NCBI GenBank assembly: GCA_018027755.1 | Contig: GCA_018027755.1_4098.1 | Source of the DNA: a phage | DNA length: 64,000 nucleotides | Reading direction: 5' to 3' (one strand) | Shown: piece after piece, positions 575 through 64,000 of the stretch | How positions within the stretch are numbered: the stretch's first letter is position 1 | How the letters are laid out: the number at the start of each line of letters is the position of its first letter | The notes under the pieces: generated by a model | The model's database searches: none | The model's input: the letters and a program-made list of their open reading frames with translations, nothing else | Told to the model about the DNA's origin: nothing | Position numbers and translations under genes: made by a program

Positions 575-619
575 TAATTACATCAAGGTAAGACACCTTA
601 ACTAACTGAGGATATAAAG

Positions 620-772: not shown

Positions 773-780
773 AAAATAGT

Positions 781-809: not shown

Positions 810-842
810 ACATACATCAACTACTGAATAGGAATCAAAACA

Positions 843-1070: not shown

Positions 1071-1077
1071 AAAAGTA

Positions 1078-1139
1078 CTTGCAAAGTAAGTTGGATAAAG
1101 TATAATACATTACATCAAGGGGAGAAAATGGTTCTCCCC
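1078..1139 (+). promoter_or_regulatory. promoter plus conserved 5' leader hairpin
   Basis: CTTGCA-17-TATAAT, then GGGGAGAA-loop-TTCTCCCC hairpin at 1119-1139. Confidence 0.65.
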
Positions 1140-1157
1140 ACTAAGAGGAAACTAAAA

Positions 1158-1301
1158 ATGAAAACTTGTCAATGTGGTAAAAAATCTATTACTGGTTTGA
1201 AACGGGGCGTTGCTCTTTGTCAGTATCACTATAACGCTCAGGTATGGGGTAAAGAGTGGGCCGACCAGGTGGAAGCAGTAAAGAAAGCAAAAAGTAAGTA
1301 A
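1158..1301 (+). CDS. hypothetical small Cys-rich protein (47 aa)
   Basis: ATG after AAGAGGAA SD; CxC...C pattern; below track cutoff. Confidence 0.5.
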   Translation: MKTCQCGKKSITGLKRGVALCQYHYNAQVWGKEWADQVEAVKKAKSK

Positions 1302-1320
1302 AATTATTATCACAGTACTA

Positions 1321-1349
1321 TTGACATAGATTGATAGTACTGGCATAAT
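1321..1349 (+). promoter_or_regulatory. sigma70-like promoter (repeated promoter type)
   Basis: TTGACA-17-CATAAT with AGTACTGG; near-identical copies at 1615, 4474, 12669. Confidence 0.65.
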
Positions 1350-1382
1350 AGATTTTATCAAGACAACTAAGAGGAAACAATA

Positions 1383-1595
1383 ATGGCTATCATCACAAAA
1401 ATCAAAGTAAACAAATCACTGGTTAAGCTGGAAGAAGTGAAAGAAGGTTATAAAGTATCGTGGTGCGGCATGTATCGGATTTTTACAGATGTTGACGATG
1501 CAATCAATTACTACACTGACACGGTAAAAAACTTTGTTCGTGCTGATGTGGTTATGGCAGTGGCAACACACAAAGCATCGAAAGAAAGTAAGTAA
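1383..1595 (+). CDS. hypothetical protein (70 aa), MAII-start paralog
   Basis: track ORF; SD AAGAGGAA; N-terminus resembles 4530 gene. Confidence 0.7.
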   Translation: MAIITKIKVNKSLVKLEEVKEGYKVSWCGMYRIFTDVDDAINYYTDTVKNFVRADVVMAVATHKASKESK

Positions 1596-1614
1596 AAATA
1601 TTATCACAGTACTA

Positions 1615-1643
1615 TTGACATAGTTTGATAGTACTGGCATAAT
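1615..1643 (+). promoter_or_regulatory. sigma70-like promoter
   Basis: TTGACA-17-CATAAT, AGTACTGG before -10. Confidence 0.65.
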
Positions 1644-1676
1644 AGATTTTATCAAGACAACTAAGAGGAAATTAAA

Positions 1677-2021
1677 ATGGCTAATATCAACACTATCGCA
1701 AAACAAAATATCAACCTGTCTTCTGTTGAAGTTGTACATATTGCCGCTCGGCGTTGGTTCCAGGCTTCATATGGTAACACTTATTTCTCTTTAAGTGTAG
1801 ACGTAGAAATTGATGGTAATTTTATTGAAGTAGTAAACGTGCCGTTCCAATATGGATACGGGGATCACTTTGACACTGTAGCAATGGAAGAATTTAGCAA
1901 GGTTATTAATATGGAAGATAAAGAGTTTTTACGCGGTTCTTATCTTTCCCGTTTTTGCCGTGACAATAATATCACTGTTTACAGTTCGGTAACTGATGTT
2001 AAACGCAAAAAAGATCTTTAA
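1677..2021 (+). CDS. hypothetical protein (114 aa), paralog of 8202 gene
   Basis: track ORF; SD AAGAGGAA; shares GNTY...YGYG and C-terminal DVKRKKD with 8202-8525. Confidence 0.7.
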   Translation: MANINTIAKQNINLSSVEVVHIAARRWFQASYGNTYFSLSVDVEIDGNFIEVVNVPFQYGYGDHFDTVAMEEFSKVINMEDKEFLRGSYLSRFCRDNNITVYSSVTDVKRKKDL

Positions 2022-2101
2022 TTAGCTTTACTTTATGCAGATACTTTGATATAGTGTCTGCATAGGGGAAAGAAATTAAATTAACTTAAGAGGATCGTAT
2101 A

Positions 2102-2371
2102 ATGAAAAATATCAGTACTTTAATCGATGCAGGTACTCATGTTCGTCGGTCTATGGTTGCAACCAGTACTACAAAACAAGTAGCGAGCGGTTATCTTGTA
2201 TTTGTGCACGATGGTAAACTCCTGGAACGTTCAATCAATTTTGATGTTAAAAACAATTGCCGTTTTATTATCTTTCGCCGTGAACAATATAAGATCGACA
2301 TTCCAGCGAAGCCCATTAGCGGTGCGTACAACGTGCAATCATTGTTTGAACGTCAACCATACACCTATTAA
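2102..2371 (+). CDS. hypothetical protein (89 aa)
   Basis: track ORF; SD AAGAGGA. Confidence 0.65.
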   Translation: MKNISTLIDAGTHVRRSMVATSTTKQVASGYLVFVHDGKLLERSINFDVKNNCRFIIFRREQYKIDIPAKPISGAYNVQSLFERQPYTY

Positions 2372-2422
2372 TCAAAACATCGTTAGCGGTCGATTTAGGC
2401 CGCTTATATTGGGGATTATACC

Positions 2423-2695
2423 ATGAACGTTAATCAAGTACTGAATGAGATCGAAAGCATCATTAAACCGATGAAGCGTACTGATGCTATGTTAACACCG
2501 GAAGAATGCCGCCTTTATGAGCGTTACAGCGTCGAACAAGTCCAGGCAATGGCTATGGCTACCCCAGCCGTTAAACAGCCTGAGAACGCGTTACAGGACG
2601 TTACAGGGGATTATATCATCAATCCAGTACTAGGGAAGATGGCTGCAATCACCGAAGATCAACAAGACTACTTAAGCCAGTACTTAAAAGGTTAA
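2423..2695 (+). CDS. hypothetical protein (90 aa)
   Basis: track ORF; weak SD. Confidence 0.55.
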   Translation: MNVNQVLNEIESIIKPMKRTDAMLTPEECRLYERYSVEQVQAMAMATPAVKQPENALQDVTGDYIINPVLGKMAAITEDQQDYLSQYLKG

Positions 2696-2700
2696 TTAAT

Positions 2701-2910
2701 ATGCTTACTGTACAGGATAAGATCGACATCTTAAAGGTTAATATGTATGTGATTGATGCAGTACCTGGTAAAGTATTTGCATACGATGACAGTACTGTAA
2801 GCGATTTCTACTATAGCCAGGACGTGGGGGATCTTTCTGTACAGTCGGTTATTGAAAACGTAGTTAATGCAGCGTATGAGCATTTACTTTCAAATAGTAC
2901 TTGCAATTAG
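2701..2910 (+). CDS. hypothetical protein (69 aa)
   Basis: track ORF; 5 nt after upstream stop. Confidence 0.55.
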   Translation: MLTVQDKIDILKVNMYVIDAVPGKVFAYDDSTVSDFYYSQDVGDLSVQSVIENVVNAAYEHLLSNSTCN

Positions 2911-2960
2911 TTTTTAAACGCGTATAATGTTTTACATGAAGGGGAGAAATGATTCTCCCC
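2900..2960 (+). promoter_or_regulatory. promoter plus 5' leader hairpin
   Basis: CTTGCA-17-TATAAT; GGGGAGAAATGATTCTCCCC hairpin. Confidence 0.65.
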
Positions 2961-2979
2961 ACTAATTAAGGAATATGAA

Positions 2980-3126
2980 ATGAAAGCATCAAAAAAGAGT
3001 AATACTAAGAAAGCACGTTCAACCTTAGATGGGGTATTCCCTTTACGTTTCGTTGATGAAGTAGTTTCCTACCCGCCGGGCCTTACTCCTGAGATGGTAG
3101 AAAGTTTGCGTAAATCTAAAAAATAG
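2980..3126 (+). CDS. hypothetical small basic protein (48 aa)
   Basis: ATG after AAGGAA SD downstream of hairpin; below track cutoff. Confidence 0.5.
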   Translation: MKASKKSNTKKARSTLDGVFPLRFVDEVVSYPPGLTPEMVESLRKSKK

Positions 3127-3128
3127 TA

Positions 3129-3189
3129 CTTGCAATTAGTTTTCAGTACTGTATAATAGTTTACATGAAGGGGAGAAATGATTCTCCCC
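3129..3189 (+). promoter_or_regulatory. promoter plus 5' leader hairpin
   Basis: CTTGCA-17-TATAAT; GGGGAGAAATGATTCTCCCC hairpin. Confidence 0.65.
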
Positions 3190-3207
3190 AATAACAGGAG
3201 AAACAAA

Positions 3208-3360
3208 ATGAAACAATACAACGCTCGGTTTGATGTTACTATCGGTAACGGCAAAGGTCAATTCTCTTTCAGTACTCGCCGCAGTTATACAGAAAACTTC
3301 CTGCGTAATTGTGCACTGACCGCCGCACAAATTAAACATTACTTCCAGGCTAAAAAATGA
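3208..3360 (+). CDS. hypothetical protein (50 aa)
   Basis: ATG 7 nt after AGGAGA SD; track ORF 3178-3360 trimmed because its 5' part runs through the hairpin. Confidence 0.6.
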   Translation: MKQYNARFDVTIGNGKGQFSFSTRRSYTENFLRNCALTAAQIKHYFQAKK

Positions 3361-3446
3361 AATCATTAGCTTATTACAGTTCAGCGGTGATCGGTGCATT
3401 GATCGCGGCATTGTTAGTAACCTATCTATTCTTTATGGTGATTTAA
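3357..3446 (+). CDS. small hydrophobic peptide (29 aa), single predicted TM helix
   Basis: ATGA overlap with upstream stop; hydrophobic sequence. Confidence 0.4.
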   Translation: MKSLAYYSSAVIGALIAALLVTYLFFMVI

Positions 3447-3581
3447 ATGAATCCTAACGGTTTAATTTACAGTACTCCTAAAACGAAAGCAGATAAAGCG
3501 AAAGCACGTAAAGCGAAAGTAAAGGAGTACATTAAGCAAGGCATGACGCGAAAGGCGGCAGTACTGAAAGCTAAAAAATAA
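3447..3581 (+). CDS. hypothetical small basic protein (44 aa)
   Basis: ATG immediately after upstream stop; Lys/Ala-rich. Confidence 0.4.
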   Translation: MNPNGLIYSTPKTKADKAKARKAKVKEYIKQGMTRKAAVLKAKK

Positions 3582-3589
3582 ATGAAAAA

Positions 3590-3676
3590 AGTGGTTGACT
3601 TCGGTCAGCCATTTTGCTATTATATATTCATTGAGAGATAGCTCACTAGCCCACCGGGTGCATAAGTGTATCTATT
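3590..3676 (+). repeat. repeated intergenic element, copy 1 (embedded promoter)
   Basis: TTGACT-17-TATTAT, then conserved core AGCCCACCGGGTGCATAAGTGTATC. Confidence 0.6.
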
Positions 3677-3795
3677 ATATAAGTATTGAGTACTGAAAAC
3701 TATTTTTAAAAAGTACTTGCAAACTATCTCAATTGGCGTATAATGTTTTACATCGCAAGGGGAAACGGTTTCCCCTGGTAATAAGGAAACAAATC

Positions 3796-4137
3796 ATGAC
3801 TATCTCAATTGCTCAATCTAACTTTGAAAATGAAATCATCGCCCAGGCACTGCGTTTAAATGATGGTCGGGCCGAAATTAATTACGGTTTCAATTCAGGC
3901 GGTTGTGAAAACTATCAGTACTTTGTAACGGCTGATGGCGGTGTCCTGGGTATCAATACAGTTATTGTAAACATCCAAAAAATTAATTTCAATGATCCAG
4001 ACGATAGCCAGTTTTACATTGTAGGCGTAGACGTGAACTATGAGGATGACTCACTAACTGATGATCACACTGGCGAGCGGTTAGAAAGTGCATACGGTGA
4101 AGATGATTATCAGTCCGGTCCAGAAGATTTCGAATAA
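3796..4137 (+). CDS. hypothetical acidic protein (113 aa)
   Basis: ATG after AAGGAAA SD downstream of hairpin; track ORF trimmed. Confidence 0.65.
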   Translation: MTISIAQSNFENEIIAQALRLNDGRAEINYGFNSGGCENYQYFVTADGGVLGINTVIVNIQKINFNDPDDSQFYIVGVDVNYEDDSLTDDHTGERLESAYGEDDYQSGPEDFE

Positions 4138-4151
4138 TATAAAAAAATAGT

Positions 4152-4211
4152 TTGACAATAGATTATAGTACTGTATAATAGTTTACATCAAGGGGAGAAA
4201 AACTTCTCCCC
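4152..4211 (+). promoter_or_regulatory. promoter plus 5' leader hairpin
   Basis: TTGACA-16-TATAAT; GGGGAGAA...TTCTCCCC hairpin. Confidence 0.65.
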
Positions 4212-4233
4212 ACTAACAGAGAGAGAAAACAAA

Positions 4234-4446
4234 ATGGCTAATATCCGGTCGAAATTAAAAAATGCAAAACAAGTTTTATTTTCAGATCATGAATACTTTA
4301 ATAAAGATATTACAGGAGTTACAAGTATCAAGGAAGTAAAAGAAAAAACCGGTGTTTTGTGTGATGTGCGATTAGTTGGGACATTTGGGAATAACGTGCT
4401 ATATCGCTGCGGTGATTACAATTTTACACTGACTATCATTAACTAA
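4234..4446 (+). CDS. hypothetical protein (70 aa)
   Basis: track ORF; purine-rich SD. Confidence 0.65.
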   Translation: MANIRSKLKNAKQVLFSDHEYFNKDITGVTSIKEVKEKTGVLCDVRLVGTFGNNVLYRCGDYNFTLTIIN

Positions 4447-4529
4447 AAATATTATCACAGTACTATTGACATAGTTTGATAGTACTGACATAATAACTTT
4501 TATCAACTACACTACTAAGGAATTAAAAA

Positions 4530-4709
4530 ATGGCTATCATCGCAAAAACTGAAATCGTTGGTCTGGATTCTATCATCATGACGTTTGAAGATCAAAAAGG
4601 TATGTATGTAGTTTCCTATGGTGATTATGTTCGGGAGTATGAAACGGTAGACGAAGCCTTTGAAAGTTATATTCGCCAGGTGAATAAAGCATACGACGAC
4701 TACCGCTAA
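4530..4709 (+). CDS. hypothetical protein (59 aa), MAII-start paralog
   Basis: ATG after TAAGGAA SD; promoter repeat upstream; resembles 1383 gene; below track cutoff. Confidence 0.55.
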   Translation: MAIIAKTEIVGLDSIIMTFEDQKGMYVVSYGDYVREYETVDEAFESYIRQVNKAYDDYR

Positions 4710-4801
4710 AATATATTACCAGTACTATTAAATCTATTGACAACGTTTGATAGTACTGTATAATAAGTTTTATAAACAGTAATTAACTTAACCTAAGAGA
4801 G

Positions 4802-4954
4802 AGAAACAAAATGATCGCACTGGATTCATTCATCGACGCAGTACTGGCAAAAACTGGCGAGGATCTGACCGCAGAACAATACGCGATGATCGAGCAATGT
4901 CAGCAAAACGGTAAATCGGTGAAAGATACTGTTAAGATTATCCGCAAGATGTAA
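4802..4954 (+). CDS. hypothetical protein (50 aa)
   Basis: ATG after AGAGAGAGAAA; promoter upstream; E. coli-like codons. Confidence 0.5.
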   Translation, partial: RNKMIALDSFIDAVLAKTGEDLTAEQYAMIEQCQQNGKSVKDTVKIIRKM

Positions 4955-4960
4955 TATTAT

Positions 4961-4988
4961 AGCCCACTGGTTAACGCTGGTGGGCTTT
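4961..4988 (+). terminator. terminator-like hairpin
   Basis: stem AGCCCAC/GTGGGCT then short T-run. Confidence 0.45.
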
Positions 4989-5059
4989 AATCATTTACCC
5001 TATACAATGCCAGTACTAAACCGTTTATCTCGTTAGAATGCGTTACAGGACGTTTAACA

Positions 5060-5257
5060 ATGATTAGCATGAAATCAGTACAAAAACAAATAGAAACATT
5101 ATCAAAAATTAAACGTAAACAGTACTCCTTAGAATATACAATCAATGGTAACTATCATCTAATGAAAGAAAATAATTTTATAGTCATTGATGAATCATTG
5201 CAAATCATTAGTATAGTACTGAAAGCATTAATCAATGACAGAAAAAAATTAAAATAA
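5060..5257 (+). CDS. hypothetical protein (65 aa), doubtful
   Basis: track ORF; no clear SD; AT-rich. Confidence 0.3.
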   Translation: MISMKSVQKQIETLSKIKRKQYSLEYTINGNYHLMKENNFIVIDESLQIISIVLKALINDRKKLK

Positions 5258-5363
5258 TCTATTGACAATATCATCCAGTACTGGCATAATACTTACATCA
5301 AGACGAGAACGTCACTAACCCATAGGGTGCACAAATGTAACTATATAATATCGTTCAATAAAT

Positions 5364-5423
5364 GATCAAAAAAGTACTGGATCAATTTAACATAAGGAGT
5401 ATAATTCTGATCAATTCTTGATC
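5364..5423 (+). promoter_or_regulatory. cluster of four GATC sites in TGATCAA context
   Basis: GATC at 5364, 5380, 5409, 5420; upstream of TraR-like gene. Confidence 0.4.
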
Positions 5424-5586
5424 AAAGGCAATATACGCAGTTGAATTTATATAGACAATACAAAGGCGTTACTATCCGTGGTAATGCTGGTGGATATGTA
5501 GTATCATATGGTTTGAATAAGATTAGCACTAGTAGTATTATTGTAGCATTACAGTACTATAGTATTTTTATAATGAGGTTAAAATA

Positions 5587-5844
5587 ATGGCAGTAGGATA
5601 CGCGAAAGACGGGGCCGAACAAGACGAGATTCACGCAGTGATTCAGGCCGCCGTTAACCACGCTAGAAAGCAAATTAACGCACAAAGAGAATCACTGGTA
5701 CATTGCCTCGACTGCGGCGATAAAATCCCTGAGAATCGACGCCAGGCCGTTATAGGGTGCATGTATTGTATTACTTGCCAGGAGGATCATGATAGTACTT
5801 TTAAAAGAGATCCGCGTAATTGTTGGCATAGATCTATGAGATAA
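5587..5844 (+). CDS. TraR/DksA-family C4 zinc-finger protein
   Basis: CLDCGDKIPENRR...CMYCITCQ matches TraR/DksA zinc-finger signature. Confidence 0.7.
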   Translation: MAVGYAKDGAEQDEIHAVIQAAVNHARKQINAQRESLVHCLDCGDKIPENRRQAVIGCMYCITCQEDHDSTFKRDPRNCWHRSMR

Positions 5845-5907
5845 AAAGTATTGACAGTACTGAAAGATAGTGTATAATGTTTTATATCTTAACTGAGGAT
5901 AGTAATC

Positions 5908-6264
5908 ATGGGAATACAACATATCACGCGTACTACTGACAATGGAGAGATCACTGGTTATCAGGTACAGGGCAAAGTAGCACAATTGCAGTACTGGTTT
6001 GTTAAACGTGGAATCATTGCACCGGATCTTGATTATGACCGTGTAGCGTTTATTGATTCTCTTTATGTTGATCCTGATAGTCGGGGCAATGGTGAAGGTA
6101 ACGAATTAATGAATGCCTTTATTGATGCCGCCGGTGATTCAGATTGTATCATCTTAGAATGCGATACGGGAGAAGATAACGCCTTTAATCTTAAAGAATG
6201 GTACGAAGGTTTCGGATTCGAGGTATTGATAGATAGTGAATATCCTATCATGATTTTATCATAG
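5908..6264 (+). CDS. small GNAT-like acetyltransferase (tentative)
   Basis: LYVDPDSRGNGEGNELM resembles GNAT motif A; SD GAGGA. Confidence 0.45.
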   Translation: MGIQHITRTTDNGEITGYQVQGKVAQLQYWFVKRGIIAPDLDYDRVAFIDSLYVDPDSRGNGEGNELMNAFIDAAGDSDCIILECDTGEDNAFNLKEWYEGFGFEVLIDSEYPIMILS

Positions 6265-6342
6265 TACTTGCATTTAGTTTTCAGTACTGTTATAGTACTT
6301 ACATCAAGGGGAAACGTCTTCCCCTACTAAGAGGAAATGAAA

Positions 6343-6531
6343 ATGGAAAACTTATCAAGTATTTTAGTACAAGATGATTTTGGCAATCCTGGTAGTGCTA
6401 TCATTGTTCGGGGTAATAAAGCAACGTTTGTTATTGCTGGTGGGCCAGTACAGCGTAGCATTAAAAATAATGCTGTTACCATTAATAATGTACGCTATCG
6501 CTTAGATAAAGAATTGATTCATAAACTTTAA
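6343..6531 (+). CDS. hypothetical protein (62 aa)
   Basis: second ATG chosen for SD spacing (track start 6337). Confidence 0.6.
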   Translation: MENLSSILVQDDFGNPGSAIIVRGNKATFVIAGGPVQRSIKNNAVTINNVRYRLDKELIHKL

Positions 6532-6538
6532 AAAGTAT

Positions 6539-6598
6539 TTGACAATAGATTATAGTGCTGTATAATAAGTTACATGAAGGGGTGAAATGATTCTCCCC
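6539..6598 (+). promoter_or_regulatory. promoter plus 5' leader hairpin
   Basis: TTGACA-16-TATAAT; GGGGTGAAATGATTCTCCCC hairpin. Confidence 0.65.
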
Positions 6599-6615
6599 AC
6601 TAAGAGGAAAGAAAA

Positions 6616-55011: not shown

Positions 55012-55541
55012 AAGAAACATGTATACTATCATTCATGAGATGTAACCCAATACATAATGGACATGGGTTTGTATTCAACAGTGCATTGGAATTGAAAGAA
55101 CAGTACAATGCTGATTTAAAAATATATCTAAGCACCAGTACTGACAATATAAAAAACCCACTCCCACCTGAACTAAAAATGTATTATACAGAGGGATTCT
55201 ATCCTTCAGTGCAAGAGAACATCTACACAGAAGACAATCTATTTGATATAATGAGAGAACTGGATGGAAAGTACTTAGATGTTCTTTTCATTTGTGGTTC
55301 TGACCGTATTGATTCTTTTCAAAAAACTCTTGACATGTACAATGGTAAGTTGTATAATTTTTGTAGTATAAAAGCAATTCAGGCAGGTATTGACCGTAAT
55401 GTAAGTCAATATAGCTCAACACAAATGCGTAACTTCGCAAAAAATGAAGATTTTGATAGTTTTCGTGAGTTTTTACCTGGAAATGACGAGGACTTAAAAA
55501 TACAATTATTTGAAGACGTTATAAAATACATGAGGAAATAA
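55008..55541 (+). CDS. NMN-adenylyltransferase-like nucleotidyltransferase
   Basis: N-terminal FMRCNPIHNGH matches the nucleotidyltransferase H-x-G-H motif; C-terminal SSTQMR; ATGA overlap. Confidence 0.55.
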   Translation: MKETCILSFMRCNPIHNGHGFVFNSALELKEQYNADLKIYLSTSTDNIKNPLPPELKMYYTEGFYPSVQENIYTEDNLFDIMRELDGKYLDVLFICGSDRIDSFQKTLDMYNGKLYNFCSIKAIQAGIDRNVSQYSSTQMRNFAKNEDFDSFREFLPGNDEDLKIQLFEDVIKYMRK

Positions 55542-55543
55542 TT

Positions 55544-55837
55544 ATGTCAGTACTGTTCAAAACCAATCCAGTACTTTGGGATCAAAATGAGCAATCAGGA
55601 TTTCGTTCCATCCATGTTGAATACAAAGGTAATACTGTAGTTGCAATTATTGCTAACAAAACTCTAGGAAACTGGACTGCACAGGTTGTTCCTATGGGAT
55701 ATTCTTACACATCTGATGAGGTACAATTTCTGGCTGAACTATATCGCCAAGTGCCGTTTATCATTAATGTACTAGAAGGTAATGATACATTATCACATGC
55801 AGATGTGATTAATTTTCTTGGAAACTTGCATGTGTGA
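55544..55837 (+). CDS. hypothetical protein (97 aa)
   Basis: track ORF; 2 nt after upstream stop. Confidence 0.55.
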   Translation: MSVLFKTNPVLWDQNEQSGFRSIHVEYKGNTVVAIIANKTLGNWTAQVVPMGYSYTSDEVQFLAELYRQVPFIINVLEGNDTLSHADVINFLGNLHV

Positions 55838-56117
55838 TGAAATAAATCTTACAGGATATTTTTTACAAGAATCAATGATTAAATTTAGTGATAAATTTTC
55901 AGTACTGGATGGTATCGAAATGTGGCATGTCAAACCACTGTTCCACACTTTCAGTAAAGAGCACAAAATGTTATTGACTGAAGCCAGTAAATCAAATAAC
56001 ATATGTGAAATCAAAATTGGTGTAAATGTCTATAAAGGGATGGTTATCTTTTTTGACAATAACAGCAACTACTTTTATATTGTTAAGGAGCATTACGTTG
56101 ACAAATACAAATACTAA
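55830..56117 (+). CDS. hypothetical protein (95 aa)
   Basis: first ATG in frame (track TTG at 55818). Confidence 0.5.
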   Translation: MCDEINLTGYFLQESMIKFSDKFSVLDGIEMWHVKPLFHTFSKEHKMLLTEASKSNNICEIKIGVNVYKGMVIFFDNNSNYFYIVKEHYVDKYKY

Positions 56118-56712
56118 TACATATTTCCGTTATCTTCGCTTAGGTCTTTCCCTACGTCCGATCCGTGGAAAGTGCGATTCACTCGCTGACCTTGACTATG
56201 CATATGCATTACATCATGAAGGTGTACAGTATGTATTGGGTGATTATGGTGAATTTGAAGAAACAAATGACAGTACTGGAATTAATGCTGGTGTAGAAAA
56301 TCTTAACAACATTGCTAACAGTTCTCGCCATGACATTGTGTTACAGATTCAAAACTTTATTGAGCAGCACACAGGTAAACGTGTTTGGTGCTATGTCGGT
56401 ACTGATGCACAAATGTCAATTTCATTCGGTAACGATGAAGGATATGTTGCACAGCTTATTATGGATTTTGAATCTGAAGAGAAGTTTTTAGAATTCAAAG
56501 AAAAGATTATTCAGTCACTTGTTGATATGGGTATCCCCGAAGATAAAATGCCAGAAGTTCAAAACATTGATGAATTTGTTTTGATTCCATCTGATGAGAA
56601 ATATGATGCAATGTTTACTGCCCTTAATATTCCAGGAGTTATTGTGGAGTACTTTGATGATGGTGATGATAGTATCTATATCGATCTAGATGACGATGAC
56701 GACGATGAATAA
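56026..56712 (+). CDS. hypothetical protein with poly-Asp C-terminal tail
   Basis: track ORF; ends DLDDDDDDE; start uncertain (possible TTG at 56098 after AAGGAG). Confidence 0.5.
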   Translation: MSIKGWLSFLTITATTFILLRSITLTNTNTNTYFRYLRLGLSLRPIRGKCDSLADLDYAYALHHEGVQYVLGDYGEFEETNDSTGINAGVENLNNIANSSRHDIVLQIQNFIEQHTGKRVWCYVGTDAQMSISFGNDEGYVAQLIMDFESEEKFLEFKEKIIQSLVDMGIPEDKMPEVQNIDEFVLIPSDEKYDAMFTALNIPGVIVEYFDDGDDSIYIDLDDDDDDE

Positions 56713-56719
56713 TGTACAT

Positions 56720-56746
56720 AGCCCGACATAAGTTCGGGCTATTTTT
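56720..56746 (+). terminator. rho-independent terminator
   Basis: stem AGCCCGA/TCGGGCT then T-run. Confidence 0.75.
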
Positions 56747-56758
56747 GTAAGGGGATAT

Positions 56759-57034
56759 ATGAATTATAAAGTTCTACAATATACATACAGTGTTTTGTTT
56801 GATTTACATCACAATGGAAGATATCTCAATACAATACGAGAAAACACATTCACTCATACTATCTGGATTAATCACTTAATAATGATACGTGAATATTTTG
56901 TTAATAGTGAGATAATCATTCGTGGTAAAAAACAGAAGATAGAACAAGTTAATAGTTTTGGTGGTAAATTAGTACTATCATTTATAGATAGTAATACTAA
57001 TGAAAGATATAGTATAGATTTGGTGGACATATGA
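56759..57034 (+). CDS. Fam-D paralog 1
   Basis: N-terminus MNYKVLQYTYSVLFDL; SD AAGGGGA. Confidence 0.6.
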   Translation: MNYKVLQYTYSVLFDLHHNGRYLNTIRENTFTHTIWINHLIMIREYFVNSEIIIRGKKQKIEQVNSFGGKLVLSFIDSNTNERYSIDLVDI

Positions 57035-57297
57035 ATTATAAAGATTTCCTACTAACATACAAGATTATTCGAGATTTAGCACACGACAATGATAGCCCTA
57101 GTCTAGAAGACACATGCACTGAAATGATTCATACAATTCGTGGTAAGATTAAAAAAAAATTCAGTACTGTTATTATTGGTGATGACCATGCAGAATTTTC
57201 TGATATAATCATTAGACGTGATGGTAAAGTTGAGGTTCAGTACTACACTGATTTTGGATTTACCAGTATTCCGTTGGAGATATTCCCTTGGGATTAA
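57031..57297 (+). CDS. Fam-D paralog 2
   Basis: N-terminus MNYKDFLLTYKIIRDL; ATGA overlap. Confidence 0.6.
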   Translation: MNYKDFLLTYKIIRDLAHDNDSPSLEDTCTEMIHTIRGKIKKKFSTVIIGDDHAEFSDIIIRRDGKVEVQYYTDFGFTSIPLEIFPWD

Positions 57298-57599
57298 ATT
57301 TAAATGATATACAATTCACTTATAAGATCCTATATGATTTGTATGATGTATACCTTGTTAGTAACAAAATAGGTTCACATAACCCATACAAAGAACAACC
57401 ATTTATTGATTTATATATTGAGTACTTAGATTCAGTAGGTGAATATATAAAAAAGAATTACAGTACTTTTATCGACGGAAATGATATATTCGAGTTCTCT
57501 GGAGTTAAATCATACAATGGGATTATCCATGTTGAATTTCTTGAAATAACCGATAGGGGATTTATCGAGATTAAAGTTGTGAAGTTGGTGAATTTATAA
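57288..57599 (+). CDS. Fam-D paralog 3
   Basis: LNDIQFTYKILYDL; non-ATG (TTG) start, uncertain. Confidence 0.5.
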   Translation: MGLNLNDIQFTYKILYDLYDVYLVSNKIGSHNPYKEQPFIDLYIEYLDSVGEYIKKNYSTFIDGNDIFEFSGVKSYNGIIHVEFLEITDRGFIEIKVVKLVNL

Positions 57600-57609
57600 G
57601 AGGTTACAT

Positions 57610-57921
57610 ATGTTATTAAATGATATACAATTCACATACAAATTTTTGTATATCCAATACGCTACGGTTGATGCTGGAGAATATCTCTACGGTGAAATCT
57701 ATCGTTCGGTATGGATAAAGTTTTTGGATGAATTACATGAATATTACCATGATTTGTGTATAGTTCGTGATAATAAAATATACAAATTCCGCGATATTGT
57801 TAGTCATAGCGGTAAGCTACGATTGGAATTAAGTACTGATAGTGATGTTGATTGGATTGGTGTAAATTTACTGGAGTTGGAGAATGAAAAACAACTTAAA
57901 GGAAATACAAGTATTTTATAA
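57610..57921 (+). CDS. Fam-D paralog 4
   Basis: LNDIQFTYKFLYIQ; SD AAGAGG. Confidence 0.65.
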   Translation: MLLNDIQFTYKFLYIQYATVDAGEYLYGEIYRSVWIKFLDELHEYYHDLCIVRDNKIYKFRDIVSHSGKLRLELSTDSDVDWIGVNLLELENEKQLKGNTSIL

Positions 57922-58168
57922 ATTCTTATACTTGTCATATGTAAAAGATGAGTACTATGAAAGTGTGTATTATTTTTTATGGCAACATTACCGTACTATA
58001 GTAAGAGATTTATATATAGGAAAATCTATCATATCCAATGGTGAAAAATGTATATGTACTGATGTTGTTAGTTTTAATGGTTCTTTAACACTGTGTTTCA
58101 GATGCGATAATAATAATGGGTCATTTTCATTAAACGTATATCAGTTAGAAGGAATAAATTTTGAATAA
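57884..58168 (+). CDS. Fam-D paralog 5
   Basis: LKEIQVFYKFLYLS; overlaps upstream gene. Confidence 0.55.
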   Translation: MKNNLKEIQVFYKFLYLSYVKDEYYESVYYFLWQHYRTIVRDLYIGKSIISNGEKCICTDVVSFNGSLTLCFRCDNNNGSFSLNVYQLEGINFE

Positions 58169-58361
58169 ATGTCCATATTGTAACAGTACTCAATTAGCTC
58201 GTTTCCGTTTAGATTCAGACTGGGCGACTGGTGCTGGTGATTTCTTCCCTATTAATGATGATGCAGAATACACCGAAGAACAGCACAAAGATTTTGATAA
58301 ATCATGGCGACCTGACATTGAGTGCATTTATTGCCTTAATTGTGAGCGTGTTCATGACTAA
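58161..58361 (+). CDS. small zinc-ribbon-like protein (66 aa)
   Basis: CPYC ... CIYCLNC Cys pairs. Confidence 0.55.
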   Translation: MNKCPYCNSTQLARFRLDSDWATGAGDFFPINDDAEYTEEQHKDFDKSWRPDIECIYCLNCERVHD

Positions 58362-58617
58362 AGCTGAACTAATAGTTCATACATATAAAATGATATCAAG
58401 TACTGAGTTATCATATAGTGCAGATAATCCAGTACTGGATTATTTTGTTGAATTATTGAAAGAGCATTATATTGGTAAATCACTGATTCTTAATAATATT
58501 AATTTCACGGTAAAGGATGTAGCACCTGGAAAAAACGTACTAATAGTATGTGTTACTTCATCTGATAACCCAGTATACCCAATATCAATAATTTTTGAGA
58601 TATTAGGAGATTTATGA
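58354..58617 (+). CDS. Fam-D paralog 6
   Basis: internal ATG with ATGA overlap (track 58231); same size class as Fam-D. Confidence 0.5.
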   Translation: MTKAELIVHTYKMISSTELSYSADNPVLDYFVELLKEHYIGKSLILNNINFTVKDVAPGKNVLIVCVTSSDNPVYPISIIFEILGDL

Positions 58618-58904
58618 ATATCATTTTAATGCAGAAAACATATGCTATATTGGTGAAAGATTATTCCATTACTTTCGATTCACAAGAAAGTGCTCTACAT
58701 AACCTATACAAAAACGTAACACAAGAATACAGAAATATGTTTTCTGACTTAGTAGTAGGAAGGTATTTCAGTACTAGAAAATACCCAAAACTTCAAATAG
58801 TTGATGTTTCTTTTTATTTCAATGGTCATATTACTATTCATAGTTTAGACCAAGATTCAACAACGTACTTAAACTTTTCATTTGATGAGGTAACATTTTT
58901 ATGA
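58614..58904 (+). CDS. Fam-D paralog 7
   Basis: N-terminus MNIILMQKTYAILVKDY; ATGA overlap. Confidence 0.55.
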   Translation: MNIILMQKTYAILVKDYSITFDSQESALHNLYKNVTQEYRNMFSDLVVGRYFSTRKYPKLQIVDVSFYFNGHITIHSLDQDSTTYLNFSFDEVTFL

Positions 58905-59074
58905 GAACAGTATTTTTTATCTGGAGTCTTTTTTCATTGGCAGTACTGACAGTATGTGGGATTTGTTTACTTTCGACAATGAATGTCTGGTACATTAATT
59001 TACTATTCCCATTCGTAGGTGTAGGTTTAGGATTTACTTTACATAGTGTTTGTAAGGATTTTAATGGCAAATAA
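58901..59074 (+). CDS. small membrane protein (57 aa), two predicted TM helices
   Basis: ATGA overlap; hydrophobic; below track cutoff. Confidence 0.45.
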   Translation: MRTVFFIWSLFSLAVLTVCGICLLSTMNVWYINLLFPFVGVGLGFTLHSVCKDFNGK

Positions 59075-59348
59075 ATCGAATGAAGTACTTGTTGCTGAAA
59101 CAATGAAGATGGTTTATGCCATAACAACTAGTAATGATTTGTCTTACCCAATTAAGTCCAAGTTGAGGGATATAACTCTTCAGGTTATACAGCAGTACTA
59201 CAAATCTAAACACAAAAGTATTATTAATGTTTATCGTGACTATGAAAGGATTCGCATTTTGTTCTGGAACAAGAATCGAGTTCGTTCGGAATGTGATATA
59301 GAAAACTTTAAATTTGAGAATCTTTATTGTTACAAAGCGGGACAATAG
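59064..59348 (+). CDS. hypothetical protein (94 aa)
   Basis: internal ATG (track 59046); overlaps upstream small ORF. Confidence 0.5.
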   Translation: MANKSNEVLVAETMKMVYAITTSNDLSYPIKSKLRDITLQVIQQYYKSKHKSIINVYRDYERIRILFWNKNRVRSECDIENFKFENLYCYKAGQ

Positions 59349-59397
59349 CTCAAGTAGTGATATAATATTGGATGAGGAACAATAACTAACACAAGGA

Positions 59398-60330
59398 GTG
59401 TGTAAAGTGCCAAGTAAAAAGCCAGATTCTGAAGTATTCAGACTGGTTGATGAAAAATTGAGTTCAATTGGTTCATCGGTAAAAATGGATAGAACAACAT
59501 ACACTACTATATCAAACAAATCAACTTTTTTCTGTGATGAATGTGGGTTTAGTAAAAATATCATAGTTAGGAATGTGTACAAAAATGGAATATTTTGTCA
59601 CTGTCCCACATTTAAAACTTTATATAATAAATTGGGTGAAATTAATTCAAAATTAAAATTAGATATTTCCACATTCACAACTACAAAAAACAAATCTAGA
59701 TTTTATTGTGACGATTGTGCGTTTGAAAGATATATGACGGTGCATGATGTTAAGTCTAGAGGTTCATATTGTAAATGTCATTCATCATATTGTATGCCGT
59801 TAGATATCGACGAAGCATATAACACTATTATGAATAAAATAAAAGATTACTCAAATACAATATATATGGATAAATCTACATACCGTGGTACACAATATAA
59901 GGTTAGATTTTATTGTACAGCGTGTAATTTTGACAAATATATTAATTATAGTAGAGTTAAATGTGGATCTCTTAACTGCAATTGTATCAGACCAATCCCA
60001 GAAGAAAGTAAATTATATATTTTAGGAATATATGAACAAAATATTTTAATAAAATATAAAGTTGGTATTTCTACAAAGATTGATAAATCAAGACTAATTA
60101 GTATTAGGTCAAAAACTAATTTTATAGTAGAGGAATTATATTATTTTACTGGAAATACCGAAGTTATTAAAAGTGTAGAATATAATATTTTAAATCTGCT
60201 TAAAAATAGTAGTAAATTGCCAAAGGATTATTTTGGTGATGGGTATACTGAAACATTTGATTTACAAGACATAAATCTTGTTATTGATTATGTATGTAAA
60301 TGTTTACTCGAAAATAAATTAAAAATATGA
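59398..60330 (+). CDS. Cys-repeat protein with GIY-YIG-like (T5orf172-type) C-terminal domain; paralog of 54226 gene
   Basis: three FxCDxCxF...CxC repeats; C-terminal KLYILGIY...KVGISTKIDKSR...DGYTET; SD AAGGAG; GTG start. Confidence 0.4.
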   Translation: MCKVPSKKPDSEVFRLVDEKLSSIGSSVKMDRTTYTTISNKSTFFCDECGFSKNIIVRNVYKNGIFCHCPTFKTLYNKLGEINSKLKLDISTFTTTKNKSRFYCDDCAFERYMTVHDVKSRGSYCKCHSSYCMPLDIDEAYNTIMNKIKDYSNTIYMDKSTYRGTQYKVRFYCTACNFDKYINYSRVKCGSLNCNCIRPIPEESKLYILGIYEQNILIKYKVGISTKIDKSRLISIRSKTNFIVEELYYFTGNTEVIKSVEYNILNLLKNSSKLPKDYFGDGYTETFDLQDINLVIDYVCKCLLENKLKI

Positions 60331-60355
60331 AAATCATAAACACAAGGAATGTGAA

Positions 60356-61084
60356 ATGATAGATAATATAAAATTTGCAACAGAAATGGCGAATCAACTC
60401 AATATTGCAAATTTCCAAATGTTAACATCTGTTATGGCTGAACATGCTGCGGCATATTCATCTAGCGGTATACAATGTGGACAAGCTAACATGTTAGCTG
60501 ATGTTTATAGTGAAGTTCAAAGCAAACAATATAGCGTAAAGACATACAAGGATAAGTTCGTAAGTCTTTATATGAATGAAGATATTTCAGAAGACCGCAA
60601 ATTCACCGATTTTATTATTGAACGCCGTATTAGTGGGGTTTCAGACCCAAATGCAGCAAGTGATATTGTATTCGATGAGGTATTAAAAGATATATATGAA
60701 AATGAATTGAAAAGTAAGAATCATTACAATGTACGTGAAACTAACACAGTGCTAGTTGGATATGATGAAGACGACCAATATTTCTATTTTCGTATAACAG
60801 AAGTTCCATTTGAATATAAAAAACCATCCACTACATCGGTAAAAGAATTCACTGAGAAGAGTAAAAACTTCAAGAAACACGAAGGAAACCGTTGTAGTAT
60901 TAATGGTTATGATGAAAATGGTGTTCATGTTTATGAATGGGTTTCACCTAATTGCCAAACATACACTCGTTGCTTGAAAAAACGTTATAATTTAGAAGAG
61001 CATGAATCATTCTATTTTAAAGTTAAGAAGCAAGGTTACACTCGCCCCGCCGATTCTGAATTGATGGGTATGATATATTTCTAA
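60356..61084 (+). CDS. hypothetical protein (242 aa)
   Basis: track ORF; SD AAGGAA. Confidence 0.6.
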   Translation: MIDNIKFATEMANQLNIANFQMLTSVMAEHAAAYSSSGIQCGQANMLADVYSEVQSKQYSVKTYKDKFVSLYMNEDISEDRKFTDFIIERRISGVSDPNAASDIVFDEVLKDIYENELKSKNHYNVRETNTVLVGYDEDDQYFYFRITEVPFEYKKPSTTSVKEFTEKSKNFKKHEGNRCSINGYDENGVHVYEWVSPNCQTYTRCLKKRYNLEEHESFYFKVKKQGYTRPADSELMGMIYF

Positions 61085-61094
61085 GGAAACTTCT

Positions 61095-61376
61095 ATGGAT
61101 TTTTATCTACACACATGGACATACGAACAATATATTACATTATATCTTGAAATTATTAACACAGAACCTAGGTGTGGTTGTTGGTTCGCAGATATCATAA
61201 AAGAGTATGCTGACGAGTTCGAGTTTGTGTATCTTGGGTCTGATATATTTGTAAAAAGTGTAGGTAAAACCGGACGAATCACTGATATAGATTACGACAC
61301 TGTTAGTGTGAATTTCTATGTTGATTTTCCTGATGCTGGCGTTGATGGTGTATATTGTCTATATGAAATAATTTAA
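61095..61376 (+). CDS. hypothetical protein (93 aa)
   Basis: track ORF; terminator follows. Confidence 0.55.
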   Translation: MDFYLHTWTYEQYITLYLEIINTEPRCGCWFADIIKEYADEFEFVYLGSDIFVKSVGKTGRITDIDYDTVSVNFYVDFPDAGVDGVYCLYEII

Positions 61377-61384
61377 ATTTTAAG

Positions 61385-61407
61385 GCCAGCGTTTGCTGGT
61401 CTTTTTT
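61385..61407 (+). terminator. rho-independent terminator
   Basis: stem GCCAGC/GCTGGT then T-run. Confidence 0.6.
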
Positions 61408-61420
61408 CGCAGGTACAAAG

Positions 61421-61723
61421 ATGCTCAGTATAGATTTAATTAACAGTACTATCAAAATGTTGGCTGATTTGGTGAGACAATCAAATGGAACTTTATATTC
61501 TGCAATGTATAAAATGTTTGACCGATATATCAAGGATTGTAACATATCATTATATGGACTTGCTGTTGATATAGACGATTACTATGGAATTAATACTTCA
61601 TATAAAACAGGAATTTTAATTGGTATTAATATAAAGATGGGGTATTTCCCTTATTACTGTATAGGATTACCAGATAATACTTTGGTAGAATATCCAGCCA
61701 GTACTATTAAATTAAGAGGATAA
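61421..61723 (+). CDS. hypothetical protein (100 aa)
   Basis: track ORF. Confidence 0.55.
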   Translation: MLSIDLINSTIKMLADLVRQSNGTLYSAMYKMFDRYIKDCNISLYGLAVDIDDYYGINTSYKTGILIGINIKMGYFPYYCIGLPDNTLVEYPASTIKLRG

Positions 61724-61730
61724 AACTAAA

Positions 61731-62309
61731 ATGAATGTATTAGAATTAAGTACTAAGCTGATTAGTATGCGTAATGAGTGGTACGATTGGTTTTATAATG
61801 GTACTGATATGGATTTTTCAAAATATCCATTTATGGAATCAGGATGTGATGCAAGATACCGCTGGTTGAGCAAAGATTGTTCTGGTTTACATATTCTAGT
61901 TGACGATAGTGGTCAGGGAATTATAAAAGATTTACTTCAAGTTGAACAACTCGTCCATGATAATTGGTGTGATAACGATCCATACCTTGGAAATATGATT
62001 TATGTAAGTGAAGATGATTGCATATTCGTTATCCAGCGTCATGGTAATTCTATGTTTTATGTAGCAGACAGCAGTACTCCAGAAGGTGCAGCAGCCGATG
62101 GTCTTATGCCTAAGATTGATATATTGGAATTTGGATTACCTGAGCACTTCCAGATTAGTACTTTATACGATATTCCACCACTTGAGTTCTTTGAAGAATT
62201 TAAATTGTACTACAATGATCTTCAAAAATTGAGTACTGATCGACGCATTGAAATAACTGTTAAGTACATGGACGGAACGAAATTAACTGATACGGGGATA
62301 GAATTTTGA
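61731..62309 (+). CDS. Fam-B paralog
   Basis: motif LPEHFQISTLYD. Confidence 0.6.
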   Translation: MNVLELSTKLISMRNEWYDWFYNGTDMDFSKYPFMESGCDARYRWLSKDCSGLHILVDDSGQGIIKDLLQVEQLVHDNWCDNDPYLGNMIYVSEDDCIFVIQRHGNSMFYVADSSTPEGAAADGLMPKIDILEFGLPEHFQISTLYDIPPLEFFEEFKLYYNDLQKLSTDRRIEITVKYMDGTKLTDTGIEF

Positions 62310-62995
62310 TTAAAGATTTAGATAGAATTTTATATGTACTAAGGGGTGTAATTACATTACATCCACAAATCAATCGAATTGAAAGTACATTTCAGTTGGA
62401 GTCAAGAGAAACTCCATATTCACATATATCAAATGTAGTTGGTTCACTCAGTACTGAAGACTCGCCTTACGATATTTGTGTATGTGAAGTACAACCAAGT
62501 TCGGATCTTGGATTTGCTATTTTTGATAAAAATCAAAATCTCATTAGTATGTTTCAGTGCAATAATCCTTTTTGGAAAACATGCCTGTATCCAGAGTGGG
62601 CGATGCTTGATCCAACCAAGAGTACCATTAAAGTTTATGACTCTAAAAATGATGAAGTCGTTATTGATTTGGATGAGTCAATGTCAGAGGAAGAACACTT
62701 TCAGCTAATGATGATGCGTGCTATGCCTGAGTACAATGCAATGATTAACACTGTGCAATACATTAAGGATACTATGCCATCATTGCGTACACATGAGTTT
62801 TGTCATCCTGTATTGTATGAACATTTGGATTTAGATTTCAGTACTATTAAATTTAAAGATAGTGTTATTAGATATATCCAAGAGGTTACTAAATTTGATT
62901 TTATTAGTACTATGAACAATAATCCAAAAACTAATTTTAGGCATCAGTACAATGAATCTTTGTCCGGTGGACGCGATACAAGTTGGTGGAAATAA
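62306..62995 (+). CDS. Fam-B paralog
   Basis: motif EEEHFQLMMMRA; ATGA overlap. Confidence 0.6.
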   Translation: MIKDLDRILYVLRGVITLHPQINRIESTFQLESRETPYSHISNVVGSLSTEDSPYDICVCEVQPSSDLGFAIFDKNQNLISMFQCNNPFWKTCLYPEWAMLDPTKSTIKVYDSKNDEVVIDLDESMSEEEHFQLMMMRAMPEYNAMINTVQYIKDTMPSLRTHEFCHPVLYEHLDLDFSTIKFKDSVIRYIQEVTKFDFISTMNNNPKTNFRHQYNESLSGGRDTSWWK

Positions 62996-62996
62996 T

Positions 62997-63260
62997 ATGA
63001 ATATTAAAGATAGATTACAATTACTATACACTATTGAACAGGCTGCTTTTGAACTTGTTAATAAAATCTCCGAAGAACTTCCCAAAGGAACTATAGTTCG
63101 TGTAATTGAGAGGGATTATGAATCTGGAGAAATTGAAGAACTAGTACTAACCGTGAATAAAGTAACATACTATGAATCTGAGTTGGCTATCCAATGTATA
63201 TCGGAAGATGGTAAAATATACTATTATGACACTGGTGTAGATATAGAGGTAATAAAATGA
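62997..63260 (+). CDS. hypothetical protein (87 aa)
   Basis: internal ATG (track 62952); ATGA overlap with rnlA start. Confidence 0.55.
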   Translation: MNIKDRLQLLYTIEQAAFELVNKISEELPKGTIVRVIERDYESGEIEELVLTVNKVTYYESELAIQCISEDGKIYYYDTGVDIEVIK

Positions 63261-64000
63261 CCCTTTTACAAATATATGAAGATTTAATGCACTTATGTAA
63301 TACAAACGATGCGTTTTTTTATGTGGATCATAAAAGTCCTGCTGGTGGTACGTATCGTGTATTCAGTTATCGTCTAGCATCATACACTGATTTCATGCAA
63401 CCAAATGCGTTGGAAACCCGTGGCTCTATGTGGGAAATTGATGAAGAAGGTGACATGATACGTTGTGCAGCACGTACAATGAAAAAGTTCTTCAATGCTT
63501 ACGAGAATCCTGCTACAATGTTCCCTGCTAACACCACATGCGATGACATTGCGGTAGTGATGCCTAAGTTGGATGGTTCGATTATCAGTACTTATCGTGA
63601 TAATGATGGTGAGATTCGTTGTAAATCACATACTGCATTGTATTCTGACCATGCGATTAACAGTACTCGACTTATTAACGAGAACCAGAATTTGTACCAG
63701 TACATCGACGAAGCGGAACGTTTAGGTTACACAGTTAATATGGAGTATACAAGCCCAGAGTACCGAATTGTATTACCATATCAGGTAGAACAACTGTTTG
63801 TACTGAACGTTCGACATCGTGTGAGTGGTGAGTTGCTATGTGGTAAAGCACTACGTGATAAGTTTCCATGTCTTGCACAGTACAGTACTAATATGACTGG
63901 AAAAGATATTCATCACACTTTTCCGGTACGAAATACCTTCCGTGAAAGCGTGGAGGAAGTTCATAAAATGCTTGATATTGAGGGTTTTGTGTGCATCCTA
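63257..64000 (+). CDS. rnlA: RNA ligase 1 (T4 gp63/RnlA-like), 3' end outside window
   Basis: recalled similarity to T4 RnlA N-terminal domain: FFYVD...GGTYRVFSY, ALETRG, KFFN..ENP, lysine motif KLDGS. Confidence 0.85.
   Translation, partial: MTLLQIYEDLMHLCNTNDAFFYVDHKSPAGGTYRVFSYRLASYTDFMQPNALETRGSMWEIDEEGDMIRCAARTMKKFFNAYENPATMFPANTTCDDIAVVMPKLDGSIISTYRDNDGEIRCKSHTALYSDHAINSTRLINENQNLYQYIDEAERLGYTVNMEYTSPEYRIVLPYQVEQLFVLNVRHRVSGELLCGKALRDKFPCLAQYSTNMTGKDIHHTFPVRNTFRESVEEVHKMLDIEGFVCIL

Follow-up and report, generated by a model that had tools for sequence, protein, structure and literature searches.

A putative tRNA-repair ligase of the T4 RNA ligase 1 family in an Asteriusvirus-type jumbo phage

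The ligase gene at the end of the window

The 64,000-nucleotide stretch of phage DNA analysed here (the window) ends inside an open reading frame that opens with an ATG at 63257-63259 and runs for 248 codons (744 bases) without a stop up to the last base (Table 1). Its start overlaps the TGA (63258-63260) of the preceding ORF in the tetranucleotide ATGA (63257-63260), an arrangement that suggests translational coupling. Six ORFs lie directly upstream and belong to PHROG families without function, with no match in Pfam or NCBIfam; they are probably co-transcribed with the last ORF. No convincing terminator-like site was found on the + strand between these six ORFs and the last one, save a weak internal one at 62495. 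A sigma-70 promoter scan of 58500-64000 returned fewer sites than shuffled sequence and was uninformative, and a tRNA scan found no tRNA gene in the whole window.

Table 1. Features at and upstream of the ligase gene, in window coordinates; residue numbers are those of the window protein
Feature	Position	Strand	Remarks
228-aa ORF	56026-56712		Cross-genus anchor
66-aa Cys-rich (zinc-ribbon-like) ORF	58161-58361		Cross-genus anchor
242-aa ORF, no assigned function	60356-61084	+	Cross-genus anchor; first of six co-directional ORFs, tightly packed or overlapping
ORF, no assigned function	61095-61376	+	Second of the six
ORF, no assigned function	61421-61723	+	Third of the six
ORF, no assigned function	61731-62309	+	Fourth of the six
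ORF, no assigned function	62306-62995	+	Fifth of the six; 229-aa product
ORF, no assigned function	62997-63260	+	Sixth of the six
GAGG, Shine-Dalgarno (ribosome-binding site)	63246..63249	+	7 nt 5' of the ligase ATG; read from sequence
RNA ligase 1 gene (rnlA/gene 63-type), 5' part	63257..64000	+	Codons 1-248 of 380; cut at window end; cross-genus anchor
Arg55 (T4 Rnl1 Arg54), N-terminal subdomain	63419..63421	+	Invariant, 118/118
Lys77-Phe78-Phe79 (T4 Lys75-Phe76-Phe77)	63485..63493	+	Lys 118/118, each Phe 117/118
Motif I, K104-L-D106-G107 (T4 K99-E-D101-G102)	63566..63577	+	K, D and G invariant, 118/118
Motif Ia region, K123-S124-H125 (T4 K117-S118-K119)	63623..63631	+	K and S invariant; lysine replaced by His at 125
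Motif III, Glu163 (T4 Glu159)	63743..63745	+	118/118
Motif IV, Glu242-Gly243 (T4 Glu227-Gly228)	63980..63985	+	118/118; final motif within the window

Several profiles and alignments agree on what this fragment encodes. By phmmer it matches the T4 RNA ligase 1 (Rnl1) chains of PDB entries 2c5u, 9do4 and 5tt6 over residues 4-195 with E-values of 9e-39 to 8e-38, and in a MAFFT alignment it is 41% identical to T4 Rnl1. The Pfam family PF09511 (RNA_lig_T4_1) is called at 51.5 bits (cutoff 28.3) and PHROG 562, 'RNA ligase and tail fiber protein attachment catalyst', at E=6.9e-73. The NCBIfam model TIGR02308, 'T4 RnlA family RNA ligase', is matched at E=1.8e-60 with a score of 205, below its equivalog cutoff of 242.25, because one third of the protein is missing from the window; the same cutoff is passed by gp438 of phage 121Q (292.6) and by the 99%-identical, full-length protein P0001 (292.9). 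Likewise, the full-length ligase of phage EC.P1 (92% identical) matches the T4 Rnl1 PDB chains at E=5.5e-57. These matches identify the ORF at 63257 as a true homologue of T4 gene 63/rnlA (RNA ligase 1), in agreement with the original prediction. Its description of the ORF as the N-terminal domain was nearly right too: the window covers the adenylyltransferase domain through motif IV (E242-G243), and the rest lies beyond base 64000. Of 50,697 phage records, 1551 carry an Rnl1 homologue at E<=1e-10, the majority of them T4-like phages. On nomenclature, 'RnlA' here refers to T4 gene 63 and not to the E. coli RnlA toxin.

Sequence past the window end was taken from near-identical relatives, and motif V and the C-terminal domain are known from these alone. 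Looking up the exact 229-aa product of the fifth upstream ORF yielded four long contigs. Among these, L007 (GCA_958334435.1, 164.8 kb) aligns to window positions 55096-64000 at 99.89% identity over 8.9 kb, with 10 mismatches in an ungapped alignment; when viral contigs were scanned for exact copies of the final 31 nt of the window, 121Q alone came back. The ligase gene of L007 (10952-12094) comprises 1143 nt and encodes 380 aa, of which residues 1-248 are the same as those of the window protein. The L007 protein then continues ...NNGTMCKIKTDWY, placing the KxK of motif V at K255 and K257, the counterparts of T4 K240/K242. The C-terminal domain PF20819 (T4_Rnl1_C) is found at residues 268-379 of P0001 (E=6.7e-17) and is likewise called on the ligase gene products of contigs L007-L010. 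In T4, this Rnl1-specific, all-helical C-terminal domain gives the enzyme its tRNA specificity.

Catalytic residues and the motif Ia position

To place the fragment in its family, we aligned 118 sequences: T4 Rnl1, the window fragment, 121Q gp438 and 115 full-length database homologues, 117 of the 118 being full-length. From T4 R54 to G228 the catalytic residues are kept in 117-118 of 118 sequences with one exception, the column of T4 K119. Lys104 of motif I is the predicted AMP-accepting nucleophile, and S108, the equivalent of T4 S103, is invariant as well. None of the 117 full-length sequences departs from the motif V lysines (T4 K240/K242). Arg54 of T4 Rnl1 contacts the ATP gamma-phosphate, and roles for the N-subdomain residues Lys75-Phe76-Phe77 (T4 numbering) are given in the same source (PMC6379707).

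In the exceptional column, Lys occupies all 39 full-length sequences of the T4-like clade, which are 35-49% identical to 121Q, whereas the jumbo-phage clade carries His (46), Gln (18) or Asn (14) in 78 of 78. [quoted passage not shown] A search of the alignment columns found no convincing compensating basic residue in the His/Gln/Asn clade. The candidates set aside were T4 positions 184, 196, 204 and 290, all of them within variable segments, and position 71, which is Arg in T4 too.

The clean split of this column is what one would expect if the jumbo-phage ligases had shifted in function, with loss of the motif Ia lysine altering the chemistry of step 1 or step 2, the use of nucleotides or the specificity for RNA ends. 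[quoted passage not shown] The equivalent residue of fungal Trl1, Lys169 (in SKHS), contacts the ATP gamma-phosphate (PMC6379707). In T4 Rnl1, however, the stress in the literature on the motif Ia loop falls on three other residues: K117 buttresses S118 and R54, and K117A is more severe than S118A or R54A (PMC4797309). All three are kept in the window protein, as K123, S124 and R55. The retained Pnkp linkage (below) and Rnl1 C-terminal domain also point to the same pathway, and the TIGR02308 equivalog model admits jumbo-phage ligases (121Q gp438, P0001) despite the change that their clade shows at motif Ia. A functional shift of this breadth thus strikes us as quite improbable. Going by the alignment, it is unlikely, if a little less remote, that phosphate contact, kinetics, cofactor use or RNA-end preference would differ in the RaK2/121Q-type clade without the motif Ia Lys. 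We regard His125 as an apparent clade-specific variant of motif Ia, the consequence of which is uncertain. The literature yielded no description of a His/Gln/Asn signature at motif Ia of the jumbo-phage clade, and this clade-wide substitution may be the one small new point at the locus. Should the enzymes of the clade prove to differ in the ways named, this would hold some interest for the enzymology of RNA repair, and they might serve as an alternative ligase reagent.

Gene order in the jumbo-phage lineage

A megablast of positions 59000-64000 returned 36 phage records, all of them jumbo phages of ~310-385 kb (121Q, PBECO4, phAPEC6, EC.P1 and others), with a best full-length match of 93.8%; window positions 25001-50000 are 97.6% identical to 121Q over their whole length. 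Phage 121Q is classified in Caudoviricetes, genus Asteriusvirus, and T4 in Straboviridae. By these similarities the window comes from an Asteriusvirus jumbo coliphage (121Q/PBECO4/phAPEC6 group, ~350 kb), a distant relative of T4, and the supposition of a T4-related genome largely falls away. The RaK2 lineage is without 15 of 38 T4 core genes (PMC3622015), and T4 synteny is therefore not expected.

Upstream of the ligase, the corresponding ~60 kb of 121Q, the nearest genome with annotation, (genes 268-437) form an unbroken run of ~170 small ORFs on the + strand, nearly all annotated as 'hypothetical'; the few with a named product encode, among others, a DksA-like zinc-finger protein, a GNAT acetyltransferase, a DNA methyltransferase and a cytidyltransferase. 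Coverage of the window by other Asteriusvirus genomes is patchy over the first 25 kb (best 73%), 80-100% in the middle and 70-100% over the final 5 kb. A 951-bp cassette 3 kb upstream of the ligase is absent from 121Q and present in EC.P1, vB_Ec-M-J and TH47, and the window genome is a mosaic. Through this variation runs a series of anchors, namely the 228-, 66- and 242-aa ORFs (Table 1), the ligase, one small downstream ORF and Pnkp, whose order is the same in Klebsiella phage Muenster, a member of a different genus; of the six ORFs next to the ligase, the 242-aa ORF alone is conserved there. The suggestion of a hyperplastic accessory region upstream is thus fair in that the stretch is plastic, made up of small accessory ORFs, and varies in content among relatives, but it does not extend to the ligase, which itself is a fixed anchor.

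Downstream, just outside the window, a 310-aa protein begins 1097 nt past the ligase stop in both L007 and 121Q. It matches PDB 1ltq at E=3.7e-38, Pfam AAA_33 and HAD_PNKP, and PHROG 505 at E=2.6e-95, and its P-loop and DxDGT phosphatase motif align; on this evidence it is a T4-type polynucleotide 5'-kinase/3'-phosphatase (Pnkp), the homologue of pseT. Four small ORFs (84, 76, 84 and 104 aa) separate ligase and kinase in L007. The number of intervening small ORFs is three in EC.P1, four in 121Q and five in Muenster (genus Alcyoneusvirus), and four lie between the two genes in the T4 layout rnlA-alc-pseT.3-pseT.2-pseT.1-pseT. The small ORFs flanking the ligase, up- and downstream, received no function from Pfam, NCBIfam or PHROG.

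How much of the T4 context survives can be read from these comparisons. The T4 order nrdB-denA-rnlA-alc-...-pseT had been given correctly, as the T4 record confirms, and the remark that the upstream neighbours are not those of T4 also stands, since the ligase is the sole match when the ORFs of the window are compared by tblastn with the nrd-pseT region of T4. The same type of search found no homologues of denA, nrdB, alc or pseT.1-3 among the window ORFs or the downstream ORFs of 121Q. Of the two genes proposed as downstream landmarks, a pseT homologue is present ~1.1 kb downstream (L007, 121Q) and alc is absent. The T4-like series nrdB-denA-rnlA-alc-pseT is therefore not reproduced here, the rnlA...pseT linkage being its sole common part, and this retained linkage is also the sole functionally meaningful part of the T4 context. 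The T4 neighbours are missing because this is a different phage lineage, for which T4 is the wrong reference genome; the implied anomaly of neighbourhood dissolves, given that the ligase sits in the standard position of its lineage, with the anchors in the same order in Muenster and pseT kept. On the gene-order evidence, the ligase is a fixed anchor in its lineage-typical place and not a misplaced T4 gene. Moreover, T4 and two jumbo-phage genera have all kept the linkage of ligase, small ORFs and Pnkp, which argues that the pair is inherited or transferred together as a module.

Could the gene instead have arrived recently from a T4-like phage, by horizontal transfer into a hyperplastic accessory region? 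The region does vary among isolates (73-100% coverage) and contains an insertion cassette, and the GC content of the ligase (37.0%) and pnkp (37.9%) exceeds the locus mean of 32.7%. This modest excess, however, is seen for Dam, the phosphatase and further conserved enzymes too. Identity to T4-like proteins reaches 35-49% at most, whereas the jumbo-phage ligases form a coherent clade of 46-100% identity over Asteriusvirus, Alcyoneusvirus, GAP32 and Eneladusvirus-type genomes of 350-370 kb, and the gene order round the ligase is conserved across genera. A recent transfer is accordingly extremely improbable; the phylogenetic spread and synteny mark the ligase as an old resident of the jumbo-phage lineage.

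Probable role in tRNA repair and comparison with known systems

The ligase gene is under purifying selection. The fragment differs from 121Q gp438 by five synonymous and no non-synonymous changes (DNA 99.3% identical), and from EC.P1 by 57 synonymous versus 19 non-synonymous codons, third codon positions holding 69 of the 93 nucleotide differences. The enzyme is therefore regarded as probably active.

Taken together, homology, conservation of the catalytic residues, the domain architecture seen in near-identical relatives, the Pnkp linkage and purifying selection are the observations on which we base our reading that this is, with high probability, the jumbo-phage orthologue of T4 RNA ligase 1, a Pnkp-partnered tRNA-repair enzyme in the normal position of its lineage. 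By analogy with T4, we infer both its enzymatic activity and a role against anticodon nucleases. The gene itself lies within a long run of small ORFs, of early type, in an Asteriusvirus genome. [quoted passage not shown] Lys104 would then attack ATP to give ligase-AMP, and the ligase would pass the AMP to the 5'-phosphate RNA end; attack of the 3'-OH end on the adenylylated RNA would seal the break and restore the tRNA. The scheme follows that described for T4 (Amitsur et al. 1987, as cited in PMC6379707 and PMC7247149), and the pathway is summarised in PMC11494293. No anticodon nuclease aimed at Asteriusvirus phages was identified, and a literature search found no biochemical or genetic test of any member of the jumbo-phage clade.

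Many homologues are labelled 'RNA ligase and tail fiber protein attachment catalyst', and T4 gp63 has both the ligase and the fibre-attachment activity (Snopek et al. 1977, as cited in PMC3400036), so that the main role might be the second, non-enzymatic one of tail-fibre attachment, with ligation secondary. The label, however, has been transferred purely by homology, and the gene has Pnkp and the small ORFs of an early-type array for neighbours, away from structural genes. A pure assembly chaperone, furthermore, needs no ligase active site, whereas that of the aligned proteins is invariant or nearly so (n=118) at every position bar T4 119. We consider a main role in fibre attachment very unlikely and retain Pnkp-partnered tRNA repair as the preferred reading.

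Much of this picture is already in the literature: a survey of jumbo phages has covered Rnl1 and Pnk-HAD (PMC7824862), and the ligase-kinase pair has been proposed as a tRNA-repair/anti-Prr module in RaK2 (PMC3622015) and likewise named so in phAPEC6. The ligase gene is ordinary, already annotated and already known, and the finding matters little past correct annotation, the protein being identical to that of the annotated 121Q gene. Three results are nonetheless useful: the neighbours are explained by the jumbo-phage origin, the ligase-Pnkp linkage is conserved, and the motif Ia substitution is flagged.

Among named systems, the closest are those of the genus Asteriusvirus. The 248 residues of the window protein are the same in 121Q gp438 (YP_009101...; 'RNA ligase and tail fiber protein attachment catalyst') and in the ligase of Salmonella phage SD-2_S15, and 121Q agrees with the window lineage in the genes on either side and in the Pnkp further downstream, with no difference in the ligase protein; orthologues of gp438 occur in PBECO4, phAPEC6, SD-2_S15 and EC.P1. 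One genus further, the ligases of Alcyoneusvirus RaK2 (gp464) and Muenster (gp156) are 65% identical and their PseT-like kinases (gp470 and gp162) 63%, in an anchor order the same as that of the window lineage, with mostly unrelated small ORFs between the anchors.

T4 Rnl1 (gp63, rnlA; PDB 2c5u, 5tt6) belongs to the same family at 41% identity, and its two-domain architecture matches that of the full-length proxy. Linkage to pseT/Pnkp via 3-5 small ORFs in the same orientation is common to T4 and the jumbo phages. The window ligase differs from the T4 enzyme in carrying His for Lys119 and in the size of the motif III-IV segment (~residues 196-222), and the C-terminal domain of the jumbo-phage proxy is more diverged (PF20819 at 62 bits versus 135 bits for T4). 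The genomic setting differs as well, the window lineage being a ~350-kb Asteriusvirus and not a member of Straboviridae, without denA upstream and without alc downstream. More distant still are the fungal Trl1 ligase domain (Rnl6) and other ATP-dependent RNA ligase families, which have in common with the window ligase the adenylyltransferase domain, an Rnl1-like N-terminal subdomain and the three-step mechanism (PMC6379707); Trl1 differs in having another C-terminal module, in requiring a 2'-PO4 and in keeping the motif Ia Lys (SKHS), and it is not close kin.

A probable mobile gene and repeated genes upstream of the ligase

The original prediction placed 'Fam-B' genes and Cys-repeat proteins ahead of the T4 RNA ligase 1 (Rnl1) homologue. 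The 'Cys-repeat protein' is encoded by an ORF on a short cassette, the boundaries of which are imperfect 25-nt direct repeats sharing 80% identity. The cassette is found in EC.P1, vB_Ec-M-J, TH47 and two contigs from NCBI assemblies (L007 and L010), and is missing from 121Q, PBECO4 and two further assembly contigs (L008 and L009). Its ORF hits PHROG 681 'endonuclease' (E=6e-21) and has the highest AT content among nearby genes (26% GC, GC3 17.5%); it is likely to be a mobile gene of the free-standing, homing-endonuclease-like kind. 'Fam-B' presumably denotes five tandem ORFs that are paralogues, sharing 25-31% identity with blastp E values from 1e-6 to 1e-8, and that fall into PHROG families of unknown function.

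Features in the window
Feature	Position	Size	Remark
Window start	1-6600
ORF with coliphage match	1677-2021	114 aa
Coliphage-matching segment	1734-2021	~290 nt	inside the 114-aa ORF
Tandem ORFs (n=5)	56759-57034, 57031-57297, 57288-57599, 57610-57921, 57884-58168	88-103 aa	span 56759-58168
Cassette	59381-60356	~951 bp	flanked by direct repeats
Cassette boundary repeats	59381-59405, 60332-60356	25 nt
Cys-repeat ORF	59398-60330	310 aa	inside the cassette
ORF directly 5' of ligase	62952-63260
His125 codon of ligase	63629-63631

In a tblastn search against a 22-kb subject, the ORF directly 5' of the ligase weakly resembles T4 cd.2, a conserved hypothetical gene close to pseT (35 aa at 50% identity, E=0.006); this resemblance is probably due to chance. 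The GC content is 40.7% in the 5' part of the ligase (window 63300-63999), 37.0% in the whole ligase gene (L007 genes), 37.9% in the pseT-type polynucleotide kinase/phosphatase gene downstream, and 32.7% across the locus, where the small ORFs are slightly GC-poorer than the conserved enzymes among them.

Mosaicism and possible exchange among phages

Compared with EC.P1 and 121Q, window 59000-64000 is mosaic at fine scale. In the ligase fragment, identity is 99.3% to 121Q but only 87.5% to EC.P1, whereas the cassette 3 kb 5' of it is common to the window and EC.P1, and not to 121Q; this combination points to recombination between co-circulating Asteriusviruses. At the window start, matches at up to 14 distinct sites per related genome indicate multi-copy families of small ORFs or repeats, and the counterpart in vB_Ec-M-J lies inside or adjoining annotated 'Direct Terminal Repeats'. 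One segment here shares 78-84% identity with a hypothetical gene of unrelated ~150-kb coliphages (ESCO5, ESCO13, ECGD1, nepoznato and others), which suggests small-gene exchange between phage lineages that have E. coli in common.

Near-identical jumbo-phage contigs of 165-354 kb occur in NCBI genome assemblies (L007-L010: GCA_958334435.1, GCA_005400705.1, GCA_958315955.1 and GCA_902500055.1, respectively), and the ligase cluster representative (P0001), which its source labels '[Escherichia coli]', lies on a separate 229-kb contig. These contigs may come from phage that the bacterial isolates or metagenome bins carried or were contaminated by.

The motif Ia residue of the ligase

Across 118 aligned Rnl1 homologues, the catalytic residues are invariant or almost so, apart from K119 of T4 Rnl1, the lysine of motif Ia, which is His125 in the window ligase. 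All 78 jumbo-phage-clade sequences have His, Gln or Asn in this column, and Lys occupies it in 39 of 39 T4-like sequences.
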